Part shown: piece by piece, positions 1,612 through 64,000 of the stretch
How the letters are laid out: each line of letters opens with the position of its first letter
Numbering within the stretch: position 1 is the first letter of the stretch
Assembly (NCBI RefSeq): GCF_964194155.1
Contig: NC_135894.1
Span: forward strand, 57,102,001-57,166,000
Length of the DNA stretch: 64,000 nucleotides
Direction of reading: 5' to 3'
Origin: Cetorhinus maximus
Taxonomy: Eukaryota
The notes under the pieces: generated by a model
The model's input: only the letters and a program-made list of their open reading frames with translations
What the model was told of the DNA's origin: nothing
The model's database searches: none
Made by a program: the position numbers and the translations under genes

Positions 1612-1760
1612 TCAGGTGTACCTCGGCATTTCACACTGTTCACACCGGTTCAGCGCTGGGTGGTTCAGAAAGGTGCAGCTGTTGCAATTCCAAGGAGCAC
1701 CTTCAAAATCCTCATCACGTTGATGAGGTCTTGGGCTATATGCCATGACAGGGCCAGCTT
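1612..1760 (-). CDS. TAB3: TAB3 last coding exon, NZF (RanBP2-type) ubiquitin-binding zinc finger
   Basis: tgtattgcag|AAGCTGGC gives [49 protein letters not shown], with TGA at 1614-1612. W-x-C-x2-C-T-F-x-N...C-x2-C NZF signature. Too short to appear in the ORF track. Confidence 0.97.
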
Positions 1761-25040: not shown

Positions 25041-26656
25041 TGACATCAGCTGTCCCTGAATTCAAGAATGACATCTACTCAGGGTCCTGAGTTTCTGTTC
25101 TGGATCCTCACGTGACTGAACAGGCCAATACTCGGCCCACATATCTTTGGGCACATGGGGCAGGATGTCACACGCGGTTGTGGGATCTGAGTGCAGGATT
25201 TGCTTCCTTTTCTTCTCTGCCTCATCATTAAGACATTGCGACTCAAAGCATGATGCAGCTTAATGGACAAGTTACTGCCATTTTGAAAGATTAGTAGCAA
25301 GCTCTTCACAGTCATTAATCTCAATGCTACCATGCTTCAAGGAGAGCTTCAGAGTGTCTTTGCAGTGTTTTCTTTGTCCTCCCCAGGACGTTGGCCATAT
25401 GAAAGTTGATTAACAGGATCTGGTGGGGAAGATGCTGTCCAACCATCCGAGCAGTGTCTGATCCACTGAAGTTGATTTTGCAGGAGTTTTGCCCGAAAGC
25501 TTGTAGGGCTGGCTTCAAGAACGACACTAGCATTTGTTGAACTGTCCTCTCATTGAATCCAGAGGATGTGACCAAGGTATTGCTGATAGAATTTCTATAA
25601 CGCTCTTATGTGTTGCTGATGCATAATCCAGGTCTCACTGCAGTACAAGAGTGTGTTGATGACAACTGCTCTCTACAATAGGACTTTTGCTGACACGGAG
25701 ATCTTTGCTGTCAACCACTCTCTGCCACAGTTTGTAGAGGATGAGCTGGTGCAGCTGATCCAGTGTTGGATCTCTGCATCAATGGTGGCCTTTTGAGAAA
25801 GGTAGCTGCCAAGGTGTGTGAAGTGCTCAACATATTCCAGAGTCTCTCCTTCAACATGTGTGGGAGGTAGAAAATTTCACTGACTAGCTATGTGTTATTT
25901 TGGCACCATTCAAAAACAGGCCGAGTTTCTTGTATGCAGAATTGAAGAGATCGAGAGTGGTTTGTAAGTCTGGCGCAGAGTGGGCAACAACACTGCAGTC
26001 ATCTACAAACTGTAGATTATGTATGGTTATGATGGTCAGTTTAATTTTGACATGGAGGCAAGTGAGGTTAAAGAGTTTTCCATGTAGATGGTATTTAATA
26101 CTGACACCAGATAGAAGATTTTTGATGAGGTGAATAGTCACTGTCAGGTAGGTTGTAAATAGTATTGGGGCTATCACACAGCTTTGCTTGACACATGGCC
26201 AGATTTTGAAGGGAACTGTTTGAGATCTCCCACTCAAGACAGCTGCAGTTGTATCATCATGAAGCAACTGCAGGATTGTGAAGTTTTTTGGACATCCAAA
26301 TCTTTGGAGCACAATCCACAGAGCCTCACAATTACTGAGTCAAATACTTTGGTCAGGTTGATGAAGGTCATTGTTTTTCATTCATTTGATTGCTTGTTGC
26401 AGTTCTCCCATCCATGCTGGCTGACCCATGGATTCTACCACAGGGTGGAGGTTAACTTGGAGAACATCGACTACCAATGTGGGTTCAAGATTGAAGAGTT
26501 GCTGAAATTGCTATTTCTGGCGTTGACTGATGGCATTGTCATCTTGAGAAGAGAAACACCATGCTGTGAGCAAAGGGGATTTTGTCCATTTGACCTTATT
26601 CTATAGATGGCCCTGGTGTTTTCAAAATGCTTTCATGCCATGATGGCCAGCATATT

Positions 26657-27035
26657 AAATAGTCATTTGGTACCACAGAACTTGAACATTGCTGAAAAAA
26701 ATATTTTTTTTGTCTAGCTTTTTCGTCTTGCACTCATCAGGACAATTTGCAAAAAAGTGCCATTTGCGAGTTCATTCCCCAGGGCATTGTCTTGAACAGA
26801 GTCAAGCTCCTGGTTTAAATTTCAAACAATGTTTGACAGTTAACTGTCAGTCACCATCAACAGGCACATTATCCATAACAATGTCTCCACCAGAGGCCAC
26901 TTGCCAACCAATCAGCTGATCTTCTCATACAGTATAAATTTGTTGTTTCGCCTGACATTGACATTTTCTTGCAAATTGTCCTGATATGTGCAAGACAAAA
27001 AGCTTCAAAAAAAGGTCTCTTTTTCAGCAATACTC
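26657..27035. mobile_element. Non-coding inverted-arm element with hammerhead motifs (family B) and a 14-bp TSD
   Basis: TSD atggccagcatatt (26643-26656) / atggtcagcatatt (27036-27049). Arms attgctgaaaaa...agctttttcgtcttgcactcatcaggacaatttgcaa and ttgcaaattgtcctgatatgtgcaagacaaaaagctt...tttttcagcaat are inverted. Confidence 0.8.
26710..26745 (-). ncRNA. Minimal type I hammerhead ribozyme motif with intact core
   Basis: Minus strand reads TTGTC-CTGATGA-GT GCAAG AC-GAAA-AAGC-TA-GACAA: 5-bp stem I, CUGAUGA and GAAA core, 2-bp stem II, UH site. Activity untested. Confidence 0.65.
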
Positions 27036-27589
27036 ATGGTCAGCATATTGTTTGACCTCTTAGGCTCCTTCCACGACATGTTCTTCATCTTCTGGATTTG
27101 TCTTTGAGCTGTTGGAATGCTGCCTTCTTGAATTGCGATCTTGGATTGTTCTGACAGGCAATGAAGGCTGCTCATTTTTGTTCTTGGAGATCACAAATGT
27201 CAGCATAACTTTCACCAAACCAGTCCTGGCATTGACAATGCACAAACCCAATGACCTGGACACAGGAGTCTAGCAAGCTGACTTTATTTGATCCCACTGT
27301 TCTGGAATTGAGTTGGATGTGTGAAGATTTTCTAGATTGGTCATGAGGCGCTTTTGGAATTCCTCTCTTTGGTTGGGCTGCTTTAAGGCCAAGACATTGA
27401 TCTCCTTCCTCCTGTACTTTTGGGCTTTGCAATGTCTTCATGCAAGGTAATGTTCCTCATCAATCAAACAAGTTGATAATTTGTCCAGCGTGGATGCTGC
27501 ATGGATCAAATGATACAGATATCACTTAGACCTTTGACCCAAACAATGATAATCCAGGAGACTTGGTGAAGGAGGCTCGACGAAGAAAG

Positions 27590-28710: not shown

Positions 28711-29864
28711 GCTACGCCTGTCTCTTTATGGGGTATGTGGAACATTCCTTGTTCCAGTCCTACTCTGGCCCCCTCCCACAACTCTTTCTCCGGTACATCG
28801 ATGATTACTTCGGTGCTGCTTCACGCTCTCGTCGGGACCTGGAAAAATTTATTAATTTTGCTTCCAATCTCCACCCCTCCGTCATTTTCACACGGTCCAT
28901 CTCTGACACTTCTCTTCCCTTCCTTGACCTCTCTGTTTCAATTTCTGATGATAGACTGTCCACCAATATCCATTACAAGCCTACCGACTCCCACAGCTAC
29001 CTCGACTACAGCTCCTCACACCCCGCTTCCTGTAAAGACTCCATCCCATTCTCTCAGTTCCTTCGCCTCCGTCGCATCTGTTCTGATGACGCTACCTTCA
29101 AAAACAGCTCCTCTGACATGTCCTCCTTCTTCCTTAACCAAGGTTTTCCATCCATGGTCGTTGACAGGGCCCTCAACCGTGTCCGGCCCATATCCCGCGC
29201 ATCCTCCCTCACGCCTTCTCCTCCTTCCCAGAAACATGATAGGGTCCCCCTTGTCCTCACTTATCACCCCACCAGCCTCCGCATTCAAAGGATCATCCTC
29301 CGCCATTTCCGCCAACTCCAGCATGATGCCACCACCAAACACATCTTCCCTTCACCCCCCCTGACGGCATTCCGTAGGGATCGTTCCCTACGGGACACCC
29401 TGGTCCACTCCTCCATCACTCCCTACTCCTCAACCCCCACCTATGGCACCTCCCCATGCCCACGCAGAAGATGCAACACCTGCCCCTTCACTTCCTCTCT
29501 CCTCACCGTCCAAGGGCCCAAACACTCCTTTCAAGTGAAGCAGCATTTCACTTGCATTTCCCCTAACTTAGTCTACTGCATTCGTTGCTCCCAATGCGGT
29601 CTCCTCTACATTGGAGAGACCAAACGCAAACTGGGCGACCGTTTTGCAGAACACCTGCGGTCTGTCCGCAAGAAAGACCCAAACCTCCCTGTCGCTTGCC
29701 ATTTTAACACTCCACCCTGTTCTCTTGCCCACATGTCTGTCCTTGGCTTGCTGCATTGTTCCAGTGAAGCCCAACGCAAACTGGAGGAACAGCACCTCAT
29801 CTTCCGATTAGGCACTTTACAGCCTTCCGGGCTGAATATTGAATTCAACAACTTTAGATCTTAA
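28711..29864 (+). pseudogene. Penelope RT (3' half) + linker + GIY-YIG endonuclease; unbroken frame, no native start
   Basis: YACLFMG, RYIDD (RT), LPFLDL, HYKPTDSHSYL (thumb), CPRRRCNTC linker, LVYCIRCSQCGLLYIGET...RFAEH...HF...GLN (GIY-YIG). About 384 codons without a stop. Confidence 0.93.
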
Positions 29865-30237
29865 ACTCCCTCCCCCATCCCCACCCCGTTTCTCCCCCCT
29901 CCCACTTTTTTTTTTTCAATAATTTATATAGATTCTTCTTTCCCCACCTATTTCCATTATTTTTAAATCTAAAACTAAAACCTTGTTAGTCTTTTCCACC
30001 CCACCCCCACTAGAGCTGTACTTTGAGTGTCCTGTCTTCCATTCTTAATTAGCACTTTTCTTAGACAAATATCACCACCTTCAACACCTCTTTGATCCTT
30101 TTGTCTGTGACATCTTTTGATTATCTGCTCCTATCACTGCTTGCTTATCTCCACAATCACCCCACCCTCAACTTCTCTCTCCCCCCGCCCCCCCCACCTT
30201 AAACCAGCTTATATTTCACCCCTCTCCTAACTATGCT

Positions 30238-30280
30238 TCAGTTCTGCCGAAGGGCCGTGAAGGCTCGAAACGTTAACTGA
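30238..30280 (+). ncRNA. Hammerhead-like motif (family A) in the Penelope 3' repeat
   Basis: TCAGTT-CTGCCGA-A-GGGCC GTGAA GGCTC-GAAA-CG-TT-AACTGA: 6-bp stem I, 5-bp stem II, palindromic AACGTT. Core position 6 is C instead of A. Confidence 0.6.
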
Positions 30281-31088
30281 TTTCTTCTCCACCGATGCTG
30301 CCAGACCTGCTGAGTTTTTCCAGGTAATTCTGTTTTTGTTTTGGATTTGGATTTCCAGCATCCGCAGTAGCTTTTAGCTTTTACTTGCCACTTCTCAGTC
30401 CATCCCGAATGTCTTGCTACATATGGACAGGGATTGCTTCATCATCTGAGGAACTGTGAATGGTGCTGAACATCGTGCAATCATCCACAAACATCTCCCA
30501 CTTCTGACTTTATGATGAGGGAAGGTCACTGATGAAGCAGCTGAAGATGGTTGGGCCTAGGACACTACCCTGAGGAAGTCCTGCAGCAATTTCATGGGAC
30601 TGAGATTGACCTCCAGCAACCACAAGCATCCTTCTTATACTCCAACCAGTGGAGGGCTCCCCACCCACCTCCACCCCCAATTCACATTGAATTCAATTTT
30701 ACTCGGGCTTCTTGACGCCACACTCAAACAAATGCTGACTGGATGTCGAGGGCAGTGAGGGAGGAGTAAAGATTGTCCAGGACAACAGAAGAACTCCATG
30801 CCATGGAATCCCTTTCACCCACTCCAAAAATCACTACATTAACATTCAACACAAAGTAAGCAATGTTAGAATTTTTAGTATTAACAACTTCCTTACATCT
30901 GGCAGAATACAATGTTAGGATTCAAGTATCCCAAAACCTCAGACCTTAACCAGTCTTCCATAACTCCAGCTCCCACTATAGGTTTATTAAGGAAGAAATC
31001 CCACGCACAAGAAACTGTGGCAAATTGGATGAAAATTTCCAGGATTCATTATGACCTGTCCACTGCCAAGTGGCCAATCTTTCACAAT

Positions 31089-45526: not shown

Positions 45527-47772
45527 TAATTGTTGTCTGGCGCACTGACCTCTACCTCGCAGAGGCTGAGCGCCAACTCGCAGACACTTCTCTTCCTCCT
45601 ACCTCCCCCTGGACCATGACCCCACCACTGAACATCAAGCCATTGTTTCCAGGACTGTCACTGACCTCATCTCCTCTGGAGATCTTCCTTCCACAGCTTC
45701 CAACTTCACAGTCTCCCAACCTTGGACGGCCCGCTTCTACCTCCTACCCAAAATCCACAAACAAGACTGTCCCGGCAGACCGATTGTGTCAGCCTGTTCC
45801 TGCCCCACGGAACTCATTTCTTGCTATCTTGACTCCATTCTCTCTCCCCTTGTCCAGTCCCTACCCACGTATATCAGTGATTCCTCTGACACCCTACATC
45901 ATATCAACAATTTCCAGTTCCCTGGCCCCAACCGCCTCCTCTTCACCATGAACGTCCAATCCCTCTACACCTCCATCCCTCACCGGGATGATCTGCTTCT
46001 TCCTCGAACAGAGGCCCGAACAATCCCCATCCACCACTACTCTCCTCCGTCTGGCTGAACTTGTTCGCTCACTGAACAATTTCTCCTTAAACTCCTCTCA
46101 CTTCCTTCAAATAAAAGGTGTGGCTATGGGTACCCGCATGGGCCCCAGTTATGCCTGTCTCTTTATGGGTTATGCGGAACATTCCTTGTTCCAGTCCTAC
46201 TCCGGCGCCCTCCCACAGCTCTTTCTCCGGTACATCGATGATTCCTTCGGTGCTGCTTCATGCTCTCGTCTGGACCTGGAAAAATTTATTAATTTTGCTT
46301 TCAATTTCCACCCCTCCATCACTTTCACATGGTCCTGACACTTCCCTTCCCTTCCTTGACCTCTCTGTCTCTATTTCTGGTGATAGACTGTCCACCAATA
46401 TTCATTACAAGCCTACCAACTCCCACAGCTACCTCGACTACAGCTCCTCACACCCCGCTTCCTGTAAGGACTCCATCCCATGCTCTCAATTCCTTCGCCT
46501 CTGTTGCATCTGTTCTGATGATGCCACTTTCAAAAACAGTTCCTCTGACATGTCTTCCTTCTTCCTTAACCGAGGTTTTTCACCCGCGGTGGTTGACAGG
46601 GCCCTCAACCGTGTCCAGCCCATCTCCCGCGCATCCGCCCTCACACCTTCCTCTCCCTCCCAGAACCATGATAGGGTCCTCCTTGTCCTCACTTATCACC
46701 CCATTAGCTTCTGCATTCAAAGGATCATCCTCCGCCATTTCCGCCAACTCCAGCATGATGCCACCACCAAACACATCTTCCCTTCACCCCCCACCGGGCG
46801 GCATTCCGCAGGGATCGTTCTCTCCGGGACACACTGGTCCACTCCTCCATCACCCCCTACACCTCAACCCCCTCCCATGGCACCTTCCCATGCAACCGCA
46901 GAAGGTGCAACACCTGCCCCTTTACTTCCCCTCTCCTCACCATCCAAGGACCCAAACACTCCTTTCAAGTGAAGCAGCATTTCACTTGCACTTCCCTCAA
47001 TTTAGTCTACTGCATTCGCTACTCCCAATGCAGTTTCCTCTACATTGGAGAGACCAAACGCAGACTGGGTGACCGCTTTGCGGAACACCTTCGGTCTGTC
47101 CGCAAGCATGACCCAGACCTCCCTGTCGCTTGCCATTTCAACACTCCACCCTGCCCACATGTCCGTCCTTGGCCTGATGCAATGTTCCAATGAAGCTCAA
47201 AGCAAACTGGAGGAACAGCAACTCATCTTCCGACTAGGCACTTTACAGCCTTCCGGACTGAATATTGAGTTCAACAATTTTAGATCATGAACTCTCTCCT
47301 CCATCCCCACCGCCTTTCCAATCCCCCCCTTTTTCCAATAATTTATATAGATTTTTCTTTTCCCACCTTTTTCCATTATTTTTAAATGTATTTCTATCCA
47401 TTGTTTTATCTCTACCTTTTAGTCTATTTTGATCCCTTCCCCCCACCCCACCCCCACTCGGGCTATCTGTACCTTGCTCATCCCGCTTTCTACCCTTAAT
47501 GTCACCTATTAGCACATTCCTTAGGTAATATCACCACCTTCAACACCTCTTTGTCCTTTTGTCTATGACACCTTTTGGTTATCTCCACCTATCACTGGCC
47601 CTCTACCCAGCTCTACCTGTCCCTCCTTCCCTTAAACCAGCTTATATTTCACCTCTTTTCATTTTTTTCTTAGTTCTGTTGAAGAGTCATACAGACTCGA
47701 ATCGATAACTGTGTTCCTCTCCGCAAATGCTCTCAGACCTGCTGAGTTTTTCCAGGTATTTTTATTTTTGTT
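45527..47772 (+). mobile_element. Penelope-like element (Neptune type), 5'-truncated, frameshifted, with a 12-bp TSD
   Basis: TSD tcaaattaccac at 45515-45526 and 47773-47784. RT motifs FYLLPKIHK, SLYTSIP, QIKGVAMG, RYIDD; GIY-YIG motif LVYCIR...LYIGET. Confidence 0.95.
47672..47710 (+). ncRNA. Hammerhead-like motif (family A), variant
   Basis: AGTT-CTGTTGA-A-GAGTC ATACA GACTC-GAAT-CG-AT-AACT. Perfect stem II; core altered. Confidence 0.5.
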
Positions 47773-48034
47773 TCAAATTACCACAACTTGCTTTGAATTA
47801 GCAGTTGTTGTAAAAGATTATGCATCTGAAGTGTAGCAGTCAGGTCATCAGATAGCACAGGTGAAGTAACCACTTCAGCAAGAGCTAAAATTGCTGATGC
47901 TCACCCATTTGCTAACTTTTCCAGGACTTCATATGTAATGGAAAGGAAATCCTCTGTTGCTTTCAATGGAGAAAAAAATCTAGCACAAGATTCAATGTTA
48001 GCTATTTGAAAGAACAATTTCCCAATAATGCAAG

Positions 48035-61095: not shown

Positions 61096-61489
61096 ATATA
61101 ATTTTCTCAAGACAAAATCAGGTAACCACATAACAGCAGTTTAGTCAATGCTTGAACACAAACTGTGAATTAAATTTGGACCCAAACTCATTTTTAAAGA
61201 ACAATCTAACATTTTGCCCTTACATTGAACTAAGTTACATAATGCAATTGAGTAACAAAGTGGAGAAAAAAATCTTTTAGTCCACAACAAGCTTATGAAT
61301 TTTATTTCCAATTTAAAGTAAGAGGAACTATAAAAACTGATAGTGGCAGCACGTATCCAAAGAATCTTAAATTGCATTGCCTCATCTTTCATACATGGTG
61401 AAAACTGTATGAGACATAATGCCAAATTTAACCTGTGCTCTTGCAATACAATGTATAAAAATAACAAACTTTGAGACAATGTACTATAC

Positions 61490-63005
61490 CTTGAGTGTAA
61501 GCATAGTCATCTGACCCTGAACTCGACTTTCGCCGCTGCTCCTCATTTCGTTTGTTGACACTAGATCCTGTTACTGCTGATATTGGTTGTATAGGTTCAG
61601 GGGCTCCAGGATGCTCTCCATGGCAATCAACTAAATTCAAGATGCTCCCAGGGTCAAAAGTAGGCGATGCCACACCTCGTGAAATTGAAGGCGGTCTGTT
61701 TGGGGAAACTGTAATTTTGAAGGTGTATTTAGTATTTGGCTGAGTTACAACCACACGAGGAGAGTTCACTTGGTTACTGCCAGCAGTTGTGGACCTAGGT
61801 CGTGATGGTTGATGGTGAATATACGTGGGTGGTACACTATACACTGGCTGCGGTTGAACCACACTCATTTGTCCCGACATTCCTCTTGACGGTGAGCTAG
61901 ATGGTGAATTGGTGGCAATATAAAGCGTAGGCTGACTCCGTAAAGCAGGTTGACTGCTTACAGGGGATGAACTTCGTGTAATGCTGGCACCAGATCTTTG
62001 GGGCGTTTCCAATTTGATTTCTATCTGGTTTTTCATAGGACCTTTAGACAATCCAGACACAGAATAAGGGATGTAGGATAATGATTGACTGCCCTGTTGT
62101 GGATAATTCTGTGGAGGCTGGTACGGGAGATGCGTCATTGTAGGAGAACTAATAGGCATGAAGACATGGGAAGTCTGATGACCTTGTTGGTTGGCTTGTA
62201 CCTGATGTTGTGGAGAGCTGTAGGGCGAGCTGAACTGTGATGGAGGTGGTGATCGAAATGCTTGCTGAGGAAGCTGAGGCTGCTTGGGAGAATACTGAGA
62301 AGGCTGATAAGTCTGCTGTGGTTGATAAACAGGTGGAGGATGATGATTATACTGTGGAAGAGGGCACTGGCTCGAAGTCCAAGCTGTGTTCTGAGGAGTC
62401 TGTCGCCCAGATGCTGGCCTAATGTAAATAGAATTACCAATCCCATAGGGAGTACTCTGCATCTGTGATGGACCACCATGTATGTGCAAAGCAGTAGGAG
62501 CAGTCTGACCAGATGGCACATTCTGTGACAAGGTTACGGTGATAGGGTTCATGGTGTACCGAGGTATGGGCTGATATGTTGGAGAAAGACCTTGCATAGG
62601 CGATGCATTCATGCTTGGTTGAAGGGAAGTTGGCTGTTGAGATGGTGGGGGAGGCGTACCTGTATTTCGTCCCTGGTCACTTACAAAGAAAGGGTTGTAG
62701 CCAGATGGATTAGCTACAATTGCAGGGGCAGAATGTGGCTCCTGTATTAGTCGCACAAGTTGTTTACCACCTCCACGTTGAGGGTCAATGTGGCCATCAC
62801 TTGTGCTATGGACCAGCGTTCGACCCCCATTGATTTGACCACCATCCCCTGCCTGGTATGTTGCTGGAGGCTGGATACCCAGATTAATCTGCAGCATGTG
62901 GTTCCTGCTCATTCTGGCGTCATCGGGGCTGTGGAACTCCCCATAAAGGTATTTGTTGCTCTCTTGGGCAAGAGCCAAACAACAGGCTTCCAGATTATTG
63001 TTATT
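61490..63005 (-). CDS. TAB3: TAB3 large coding exon (end of CUE domain plus Pro/Ser/Gln-rich region)
   Basis: Acceptor ...tttttaaattaag|AATAACAATAATCTGGAAGCCTGTTGT gives NNNNLEACCLALAQESNKYLY. Contains GGRTLVHSTSDGHIDPQ, QEPHSAPA, APEPIQPIS and SSSGSDDYAYTQ. Donor CAAG|GTATAG (phase 1). Lies in the frame of the 516-aa ORF. Confidence 0.96.
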
Positions 63006-64000
63006 CTTAATTTAAAAAGAGAAATTTTAAAAATTAATGTTAAGTTATGATGGCATTATTGAAGCTTACATAGTAACATGTGGACAGTTTCAAACATGCA
63101 CAATTTTAATACGAATCCAATGTACAAGAGGAAAATATTTATCAAACAATGTAATAAGTTTAAAATCACGTGGGGTTTAAAAGTACTATACAATGCCATG
63201 ATGGGGAAGAATTATTCTTTTTGACTAAGAAAAAGCAAAGAAAAGTTGAGTATTGTGAAATGAGGAGTGGGCTTGTGGTGAAGTATTTTCAATAGCCTAG
63301 TCATTTAAAGACAGTACAGATGAGGCATGAAGAAACAAAAAAGCCATTTGTCCTTGCACACAAGAGTGACATACGCAAATACCAGTTAGAGAAGTCAAAG
63401 AAAGTGGGCTGGTGGAGGAGGGCAGATTGCCTGCTATTGGAAGTTATATGTCAAATATAACTGAAGGGCTCACACTACTTGTTGCTGGGGATTGTCTTAA
63501 ATCCAAGTTTACCAATACCCAAAGAATACAGGAATATACCAAAGTACACTCTTAATAGGCATCAACATTGTAATTCATGTGTCTTATGCACTTCTCAAAC
63601 TTTTCTTTTCTAAAGGCTGTGCCTAAGGAAAACAAATGACAGCTAACCTTGATGCCTTATTCTAAAAACCATTCCTCACATTTAATACAAGCAGTACTAG
63701 TAGACTGTTCAACCTCAGAGACCATCACAGTCAAGTCCTATCTCAGTATACACTTTACAAAATGGGTTCACTAGAAAGTAATGAGTAGTAAGAACCCTGC
63801 ACATTTTTCTCCTCTTGCCCAGTAGGAATCAAACCTGGAACCTTAATCTATATTGTTCAAGTATCTTCCCATGAGGTGCATTTCTTCATTGCACCATTGG
63901 GAAGCACCACCTCTGCAAAGGAATCGGAATGGAGCACTAGGTCATATCCTCTCTTATAGCATGTTCAACTTACAATAACTCAGGTTAGAAGAAAATCTAA

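Follow-up and report, generated by a model that had tools for sequence, protein, structure and literature searches.

A 379-bp hammerhead-bearing insert in Cetorhinus maximus is very probably a truncated Penelope-like element with head-to-head 3' ends

The 379-bp insert at positions 26657-27035 of the window, the 64,000-nt stretch of Cetorhinus maximus DNA that was analyzed (GCF_964194155.1, contig NC_135894.1), is with a probability of about 0.93 a single decayed, 5'-truncated copy of an abundant Penelope-like element (PLE), in which a forward 3' end and an inverted, tailed 3' end stand head-to-head within a target-site duplication (TSD). It likely arose in one insertion event driven by the element's own reverse transcriptase (RT) with a GIY-YIG endonuclease (EN). 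A preliminary description had interpreted the insert as a self-transcribing, self-cleaving, non-autonomous element. Its relation to Penelope and its minimal hammerhead stand, but a separate family of that kind is contradicted by an inversion junction that is unique and by sister inverted junctions that differ in 32/32 cases. As to what had been observed, the insert, TSD, arms, promoter boxes and motif held, while the noncoding character, the double hammerhead, the palindrome as a family trait, the 379-bp family and the missing partner did not. The features of the locus are as follows.

25884-26642, minus strand: host LINE, older RT region, interrupted by the insert and resuming past 27049
26643-26656, plus strand: left TSD copy, host LINE sequence ending in ATT; present as a single copy in 8/14 empty sites
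26657-26762, minus strand: inverted arm, a 5'-truncated 3' end that begins about 24-25 nt past the TATA position, takes in the hammerhead and finishes with the tail
26657-26683, minus strand: tail of about 27 nt, on the inverted arm only; in full-length copies it runs from the pseudo-LTR (pLTR) into the first ORF codons
26710-26745, minus strand: minimal type I hammerhead with intact CUGAUGA and GAAA core; stem III palindrome disrupted
26759-26762, no strand: inversion junction, a 4-nt microhomology common to both arms; unique in the genome
26759-27035, plus strand: forward arm, a tail-less 5'-truncated PLE 3' end, which reaches the first of the two favoured 3' end points
26759-26818, plus strand: degenerate end of the RT/GIY-YIG ORF, comprising its last ~19 codons with the TAA stop
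26834-26849, no strand: 16-bp palindrome, perfect only by a private G-to-A change; the family core is a 10-bp palindrome
26908-26938, plus strand: CCAAT (26908-26912) and TATAAA (26933-26938), the family's predicted pLTR promoter
26976-27011, plus strand: degenerate hammerhead that keeps AAGCTT, with altered G8, A9 and G12 and two further changes in the 3' strand of stem I
27012-27035, plus strand: pLTR end matching the first ORF codons; start codon not preserved in the window copy
27036-27049, plus strand: right TSD copy, from the comparison of the 14-bp repeat and from empty sites

The inverted arms seen earlier were recovered at 26697-26762 and 26959-27024, and the first 106 bases of the insert match the 3' ends of the same PLE copies as the forward arm does, on the opposite strand. 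The insert had been called noncoding, which does not agree with the PLE codons and stop at 26759-26818 or with the match of 27012-27035 to the first codons. The CCAAT and TATAAA boxes lie where they had been placed. Both are kept in 43/70 full pLTR copies and form a predicted promoter. A perfect 16-bp palindrome is indeed present in the window, but the perfect 16-mer occurs in only 2/70 copies; the variable site is G in 64/70 copies where the window has A, and the window's perfect palindrome is thus due to one private change. The pLTR also carries an internally duplicated unit containing CCAAT, found in the window at 26783-26805 and 26884-26912, and one copy of this unit overlaps the last ORF codons.

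The parent of the insert was found by searching the 4.0-Gb assembly, where the insert as query gave 3,401 candidates, of which 40 were scored. Thirty-eight of these 40 cover only the part of the insert from about 26759 onward, with 82-85% identity, and the other scored matches were the insert itself and one other short inverted composite. Among the 29 best non-self loci, 26 extend colinearly upstream of the start of the forward arm for 50 to over 1,000 nt, and this continuation translates to a PLE RT (YVDD) and an EN. Pfam matched RVT_1 in 3/3 RT stretches (E 5e-5 to 8e-4) and GIY-YIG in 1/3 EN stretches (E 7e-4), significant by E-value and all below the curated cut-offs in these decayed copies; another EN stretch gave only an unrelated weak UL141 match. 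A PDB search with a 477-aa RT stretch returned zero matches, and Atlas look-alikes at 0.94 included GIY-YIG clusters (11-22% of members). One locus carries the whole PLE unit, of about 2.8 kb. The parent ORF appears to start just after the hammerhead, and the tail therefore corresponds to the first ORF codons. A direct pLTR piece runs into the ORF in 21/30 loci that hold an ORF start, and 19 of these reach into or past the hammerhead.

The parent family has the anatomy of EN+ PLEs throughout: a single ORF with a PLE-type RT and, at its C-terminus, a GIY-YIG endonuclease, a pLTR that stands ahead of the ORF as a direct partial tandem and again at the 3' end, an adjoining inverted 5'-truncated copy with an optional tail at one end (32/70 loci), and a minimal hammerhead in the pLTR, for which the column majority gives the full core. 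The insert is thus a stub of an ORF-bearing PLE of the same genome, in line with the Penelope relation first proposed, and the partner that had been left without a name is the PLE ORF with RT and GIY-YIG found upstream in other copies. No intact ORF was detected among 115 scored RT matches, where the longest open frame is 544 aa of about 850, so we infer the enzyme's action. Identity to the family majority has a median of 90% over copies and is 87% for the window copy. The family looks extinct, given this median and the lack of an intact ORF among those matches. A subfamily (L111, L116, L119, L130 and L136) has A at the cleavage-site position and a shorter 3' side of stem I; it is commoner among long copies.

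Whether the 379-bp unit is repeated was examined with a 28-nt degenerate pattern spanning the window's inversion junction, searched over the whole genome with at most two mismatches. This junction gave one match, the window itself (control 0), whereas the same right half of the forward arm joined to the ORF gave 5,141 matches (control 0). Copies joined to an RT/GIY-YIG ORF, for which a search had been suggested, are therefore abundant, and the proposed 379-bp family fails, since its defining junction occurs once against 5,141 ORF-joined places.

All 70 loci with an exact intact hammerhead were also fetched and their junctions surveyed. An inverted piece adjoins 32 of them, with break points that differ in 32/32. 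More than 30 ORF codons are present at 24/70 loci and 30 or fewer at 46/70. A hammerhead unit on the opposite strand lies within 1.5 kb at 41/70 loci; a second unit on the same strand lies within that distance at 1/70, about 1 kb off and not in tandem. The 5' ends of the copies are scattered along the element. At 9/29 loci a TSD of 9-17 bp was detected, compared to 2/145 shifted controls, in a sample made up of the first 30 loci less one dropped at a locus edge. The 3' ends are bimodal, with peaks about 26 nt apart, and the window's two arms end one at each; the mapping over-extends some ends (11/70 past the tail, 2 unmapped), and only the two peaks are used here. The 46 ORF-poor loci make short stubs the majority, a point against the preferred explanation; steep 5' truncation accounts for them, although short pLTR transcripts could give some. 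Two copies, L088 (the start of a unit) and L124, have their 5' end near the cleavage site of the hammerhead and extend into the ORF, like ribozyme-cut RNA. Such 5' ends were considered as a family feature and dropped, as 2/30 ORF-start loci are too few for that claim.

The 36-nt hammerhead that had been assembled by combining the two arms has 70 exact copies in the genome (control 0), and its class was also correctly recognized: it belongs to the minimal hammerheads of PLE type, its stem III is palindromic, and promoter-like boxes lie ahead of it. In a different set of 70 full pLTR copies, chosen independently of the motif, the column majority retains the whole core, as a check on the family consensus had called for, and the motif is fully intact in 3/70. 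Copies of a single dead family drift neutrally, and the changes in the hammerhead columns are scattered and concentrated at CpG. Hammerhead variants with a very short stem II were reportedly described by Lunse et al. in 2016. An Rfam scan of the whole window gave 6 chance-level matches and none at the insert; its hammerhead models missed the minimal motif.

In the window itself, the double hammerhead is not borne out, because the two motifs occupy opposite strands and both are damaged. A single RNA would therefore contain one of the motifs along with the other's antisense. In the plus copy (26976-27011), G8, A9 and G12 are gone together with two stem I pairs, and G8 and G12 are given as the catalytic acid and base of the hammerhead in the part of PMC6155905 that is cited here. 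The minus copy (26745-26710) keeps its core, and its stem III is no longer a 6-nt palindrome. For each strand the predicted fold is a long hairpin (z-scores -7.9 and -9.8), in which the motif is 86-89% paired to the opposite arm and stem I has probability 0. The intact C3-G8, A9 and G12 core with formable stems I-III that marks an active hammerhead is thus absent from the window copy, and both motifs are likely dead. No RNA data set was listed as containing the stretch, and one public run guessed to be RNA contained short family-like pieces only; neither result has a bearing on expression.

The insert interrupts an older LINE, for which Pfam found RVT_1 in 25884-26339 (E 3.9e-8) and which has many paralogues in the genome; we take it to be of RTE type. 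The flanking 14-bp direct repeat, 26643-26656 and 27036-27049, has one mismatch, as first noted. In eight of 14 host-LINE paralogues, both flanks align with an exact 14-nt overlap and without the insert, and for this reason the repeat is a real TSD. The remaining 6 comprise three inexact projections, one copy interrupted by about 800 nt and two without a match to the right flank. Contigs of one public run, which may be from the source sample, bridge both insert junctions with zero differences. Runs labelled as two other organisms bridge one junction each, the left one with 2 differences in 131 nt and the right one with 8 differences and 4 gaps in 202 nt. On this evidence, the insertion is no assembly artefact and is older than the split of the organisms that label the runs.

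A mechanism for the insertion is suggested by Poseidon PAc of Anolis carolinensis. According to the parts of that report used here, the PAc protein nicks AT-rich DNA on both strands with a preference for ATT, its reverse transcription starts at two internal sites early in the ORF that delimit the tail, and insertion did not need hammerhead cleavage (Frangieh et al. 2024, PMC11167929). In the window, the element protein would have cut each strand at an ATT site, with the two nicks 14 bp apart, and copying of the RNA would have begun at two internal points within the first ORF codons. The nearer point would have given the forward arm and the farther, tail-giving point the inverted arm. Both cDNAs would then have stopped early and joined through the 4-nt microhomology; in an alternative form, one cDNA would have joined its own template-switched copy through the same 4 nt. 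Both forms are proposed because ATT closes the TSD and each arm finishes at one of the family's two end points. The promoter and hammerhead would belong to the parent pseudo-LTR and, in tandem copies, would serve the downstream ORF. In the window stub they are probably idle, as no ORF follows, the catalytic guanines are missing from the plus-strand ribozyme, and in read-through RNA of either strand the motif is predicted to be buried in the hairpin.

One alternative is that the 379-bp unit belongs to a retrozyme-like, non-autonomous family with its own promoter, self-cleavage as a dimer and mobilization by a Penelope enzyme. Promoter boxes and an intact family hammerhead do exist, the TSD is real, and animal retrozymes are proposed to derive from pLTRs in the portion of 10.64898/2026.07.22.740005 cited here. 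Nevertheless, this is very improbable, since the window junction is unique and the inverted junctions of sister loci all differ, the single second same-strand hammerhead is distant and non-tandem, the opposite-strand motifs are predicted to be paired to the other arm, and the plus copy is without G8 and G12. A DNA MITE, with the arms as terminal inverted repeats, is the least credible of the alternatives. It would account for inverted arms, a stable predicted hairpin and a TSD, but the arms are unequal, with a 27-nt tail on one, and constitute the terminus of an element that carries an RT, TSDs range in length from 9 to 17 bp, and the unit has no second copy. The insert therefore shows none of the equal terminal inverted repeats, fixed short TSD and many same-size copies of a MITE, a reading that the link to the ORF and the uniqueness of the junction refute.

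Another possible explanation is that a short transcript of the pLTR only, begun about 25 nt after TATA, was the template of the stub, so that the inverted arm would be a complete RNA front. The window's inverted arm starts at such a distance, and one arm starts 17-31 nt after TATA in 8/28 head-to-head pairs of a mixed sample. Overall, however, 6/52 anchored 5' ends fall in this interval (p 0.10), with profile-alignment edges that are imprecise by several bases, and 2/29 do so among 40 later-fetched loci (p 0.55). A fixed 5' start near the predicted transcription start was accordingly rejected, as it was seen in the mixed sample and not replicated in the 40 further loci. Also, the start of the forward arm falls within the ORF, 180 nt upstream of TATA, and the arm thus needs a read-through template. 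We regard this origin as unlikely, although less so than the others weighed here. Retention by the host, with the core-intact minus-strand hammerhead or the hairpin acting in an intron of a minus-strand gene, is scarcely more plausible than the MITE. The insertion is common to runs labelled as three organisms, and its site may be intronic because a RanBP-type zinc-finger exon (1618-1716, minus strand; Pfam E 5e-7) and a 527-codon Pro/Gln/Ser-rich frame (61428-63011) lie on the same minus strand; the site would be in an intron if frame and exon, which are presumably TAB2/TAB3-like, form one gene. The window copy shows no sign of constraint in its 87% identity to the family majority against a median of 90%, its stem III is disrupted and its motif is predicted to be buried. 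A truncated PLE insertion with two head-to-head 3' ends remains our preferred explanation.

The family also provides data on how inverted ends form. The arms stop within 11 nt of each other in 9/32 head-to-head pairs, where 2.3 are expected (permutation p 0.00015; the 11-nt limit was chosen after data inspection, and profile edges are imprecise). The near-equal pairs are L077, L081, L139, L145, L150, L161, L163, L168 and L171. Near-equal arms fit fold-back self-priming, which was already suggested in the relevant part of PMC3846280; this concerns the family, as the window's arms are unequal. Where the arms are unequal, as in the window, both start points and a microhomology are used, and such pairs resemble the product of two priming events. 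We tentatively propose that one family may use both routes to an inverted pLTR, self-copying of a folded-back cDNA and two priming events, although the odds are somewhat against it. If this is true, both routes could be counted genome-wide across thousands of sister copies. The locus itself matters little, being a fossil stub of a known class that shows how such stubs can pass for retrozymes. Thousands of natural insertion junctions are available in the family, and their two 3' end points fit the PAc internal-initiation result in a second vertebrate lineage. It could be used to test the formation of the inverted pLTR, a step still unexplained in the sections of PMC11167929 and PMC8557442 drawn on here.

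As for its clade, the parent family has a C-terminal EN without a zinc-finger linker. The CX2-5CxxC zinc-finger linker ahead of GIY-YIG is the marker of the Neptune clade in the part of PMC8557442 consulted, and it was found in 0/16 linker reads (loci L032-L055, some frameshifted). A Neptune label was dropped on this result, and the family appears to be of Penelope/Poseidon type because its linker lacks the Neptune zinc finger. The other Penelope copies in the window had been said to differ from the insert, and they do form a separate family with a zinc-finger linker. This second PLE family has two copies, 84% alike, at 28713-30341 and 46150-47773 (plus strand), with a CX4CxxC linker and GIY-YIG of Neptune type. 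A different hammerhead-like end of this family lies near 30240-30290.

The anatomy of the insert has already been published for PLEs, as far as the cited portions of PMC8557442, PMC3846280, PMC4209133 and PMC11167929 extend. A literature search for shark Penelope hammerhead ribozymes gave nothing relevant, and supplements of the cited papers may list related families. Like the EN+ PLE insertions described in the sections cited of Arkhipova et al. (2013, PMC3846280) and Craig et al. (2021, PMC8557442), the insert is 5'-truncated, has a head-to-head inverted 5'-truncated copy, a tail at one end and a TSD, and its pLTR carries the first ORF codons and TATA. It differs in that both arms are stubs, which leaves almost no ORF, and in its sizes: the TSD is 14 bp (9-17 bp in the family) compared to 8-10 bp in the rotifer examples given there, and the tail is about 27 nt compared to 30-40. 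With PAc, as presented in the cited part of PMC11167929, the family shares the absence of a zinc-finger linker, a hammerhead where pLTR and ORF meet, a tail bounded by two 3' end points and a target ending in ATT. The shark-family ORF appears to start after the hammerhead, whereas the PAc ORF starts at stem II; the Cetorhinus maximus family looks extinct, and the likeness to PAc is one of anatomy.

Among metazoan PLE hammerheads, those covered in the cited parts of Cervera and De la Pena (2014, PMC4209133) and a review (PMC6765202) are likewise type I, with a 5-bp stem I and a palindromic stem III suited to dimers. Stem II is 2 bp in the window family compared to 7-8 bp in the Schistosoma families of PMC4209133, a paper whose cited part also describes pairs of PLE hammerheads 100-700 bp apart on opposite strands and ascribes most motifs, which are single, to probably truncated PLEs. 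Non-LTR retrozymes, as described in the cited portions of Cervera and De la Pena (2020, PMC7229834) and Li et al. (2026, 10.64898/2026.07.22.740005), resemble the insert in their 300-400 bp size, type I hammerhead, low GC, long TSD and link to pLTRs. They are, however, head-to-tail tandems with same-strand hammerheads that are expressed as circles, in contrast to a unique head-to-head composite with damaged motifs on opposite strands. At least two consecutive, complete, same-strand hammerheads in head-to-tail units are absent from the insert, as is a repeated unit of defined structure, its junction occurring once. The insert is a dead PLE insertion of known anatomy, not a retrozyme.
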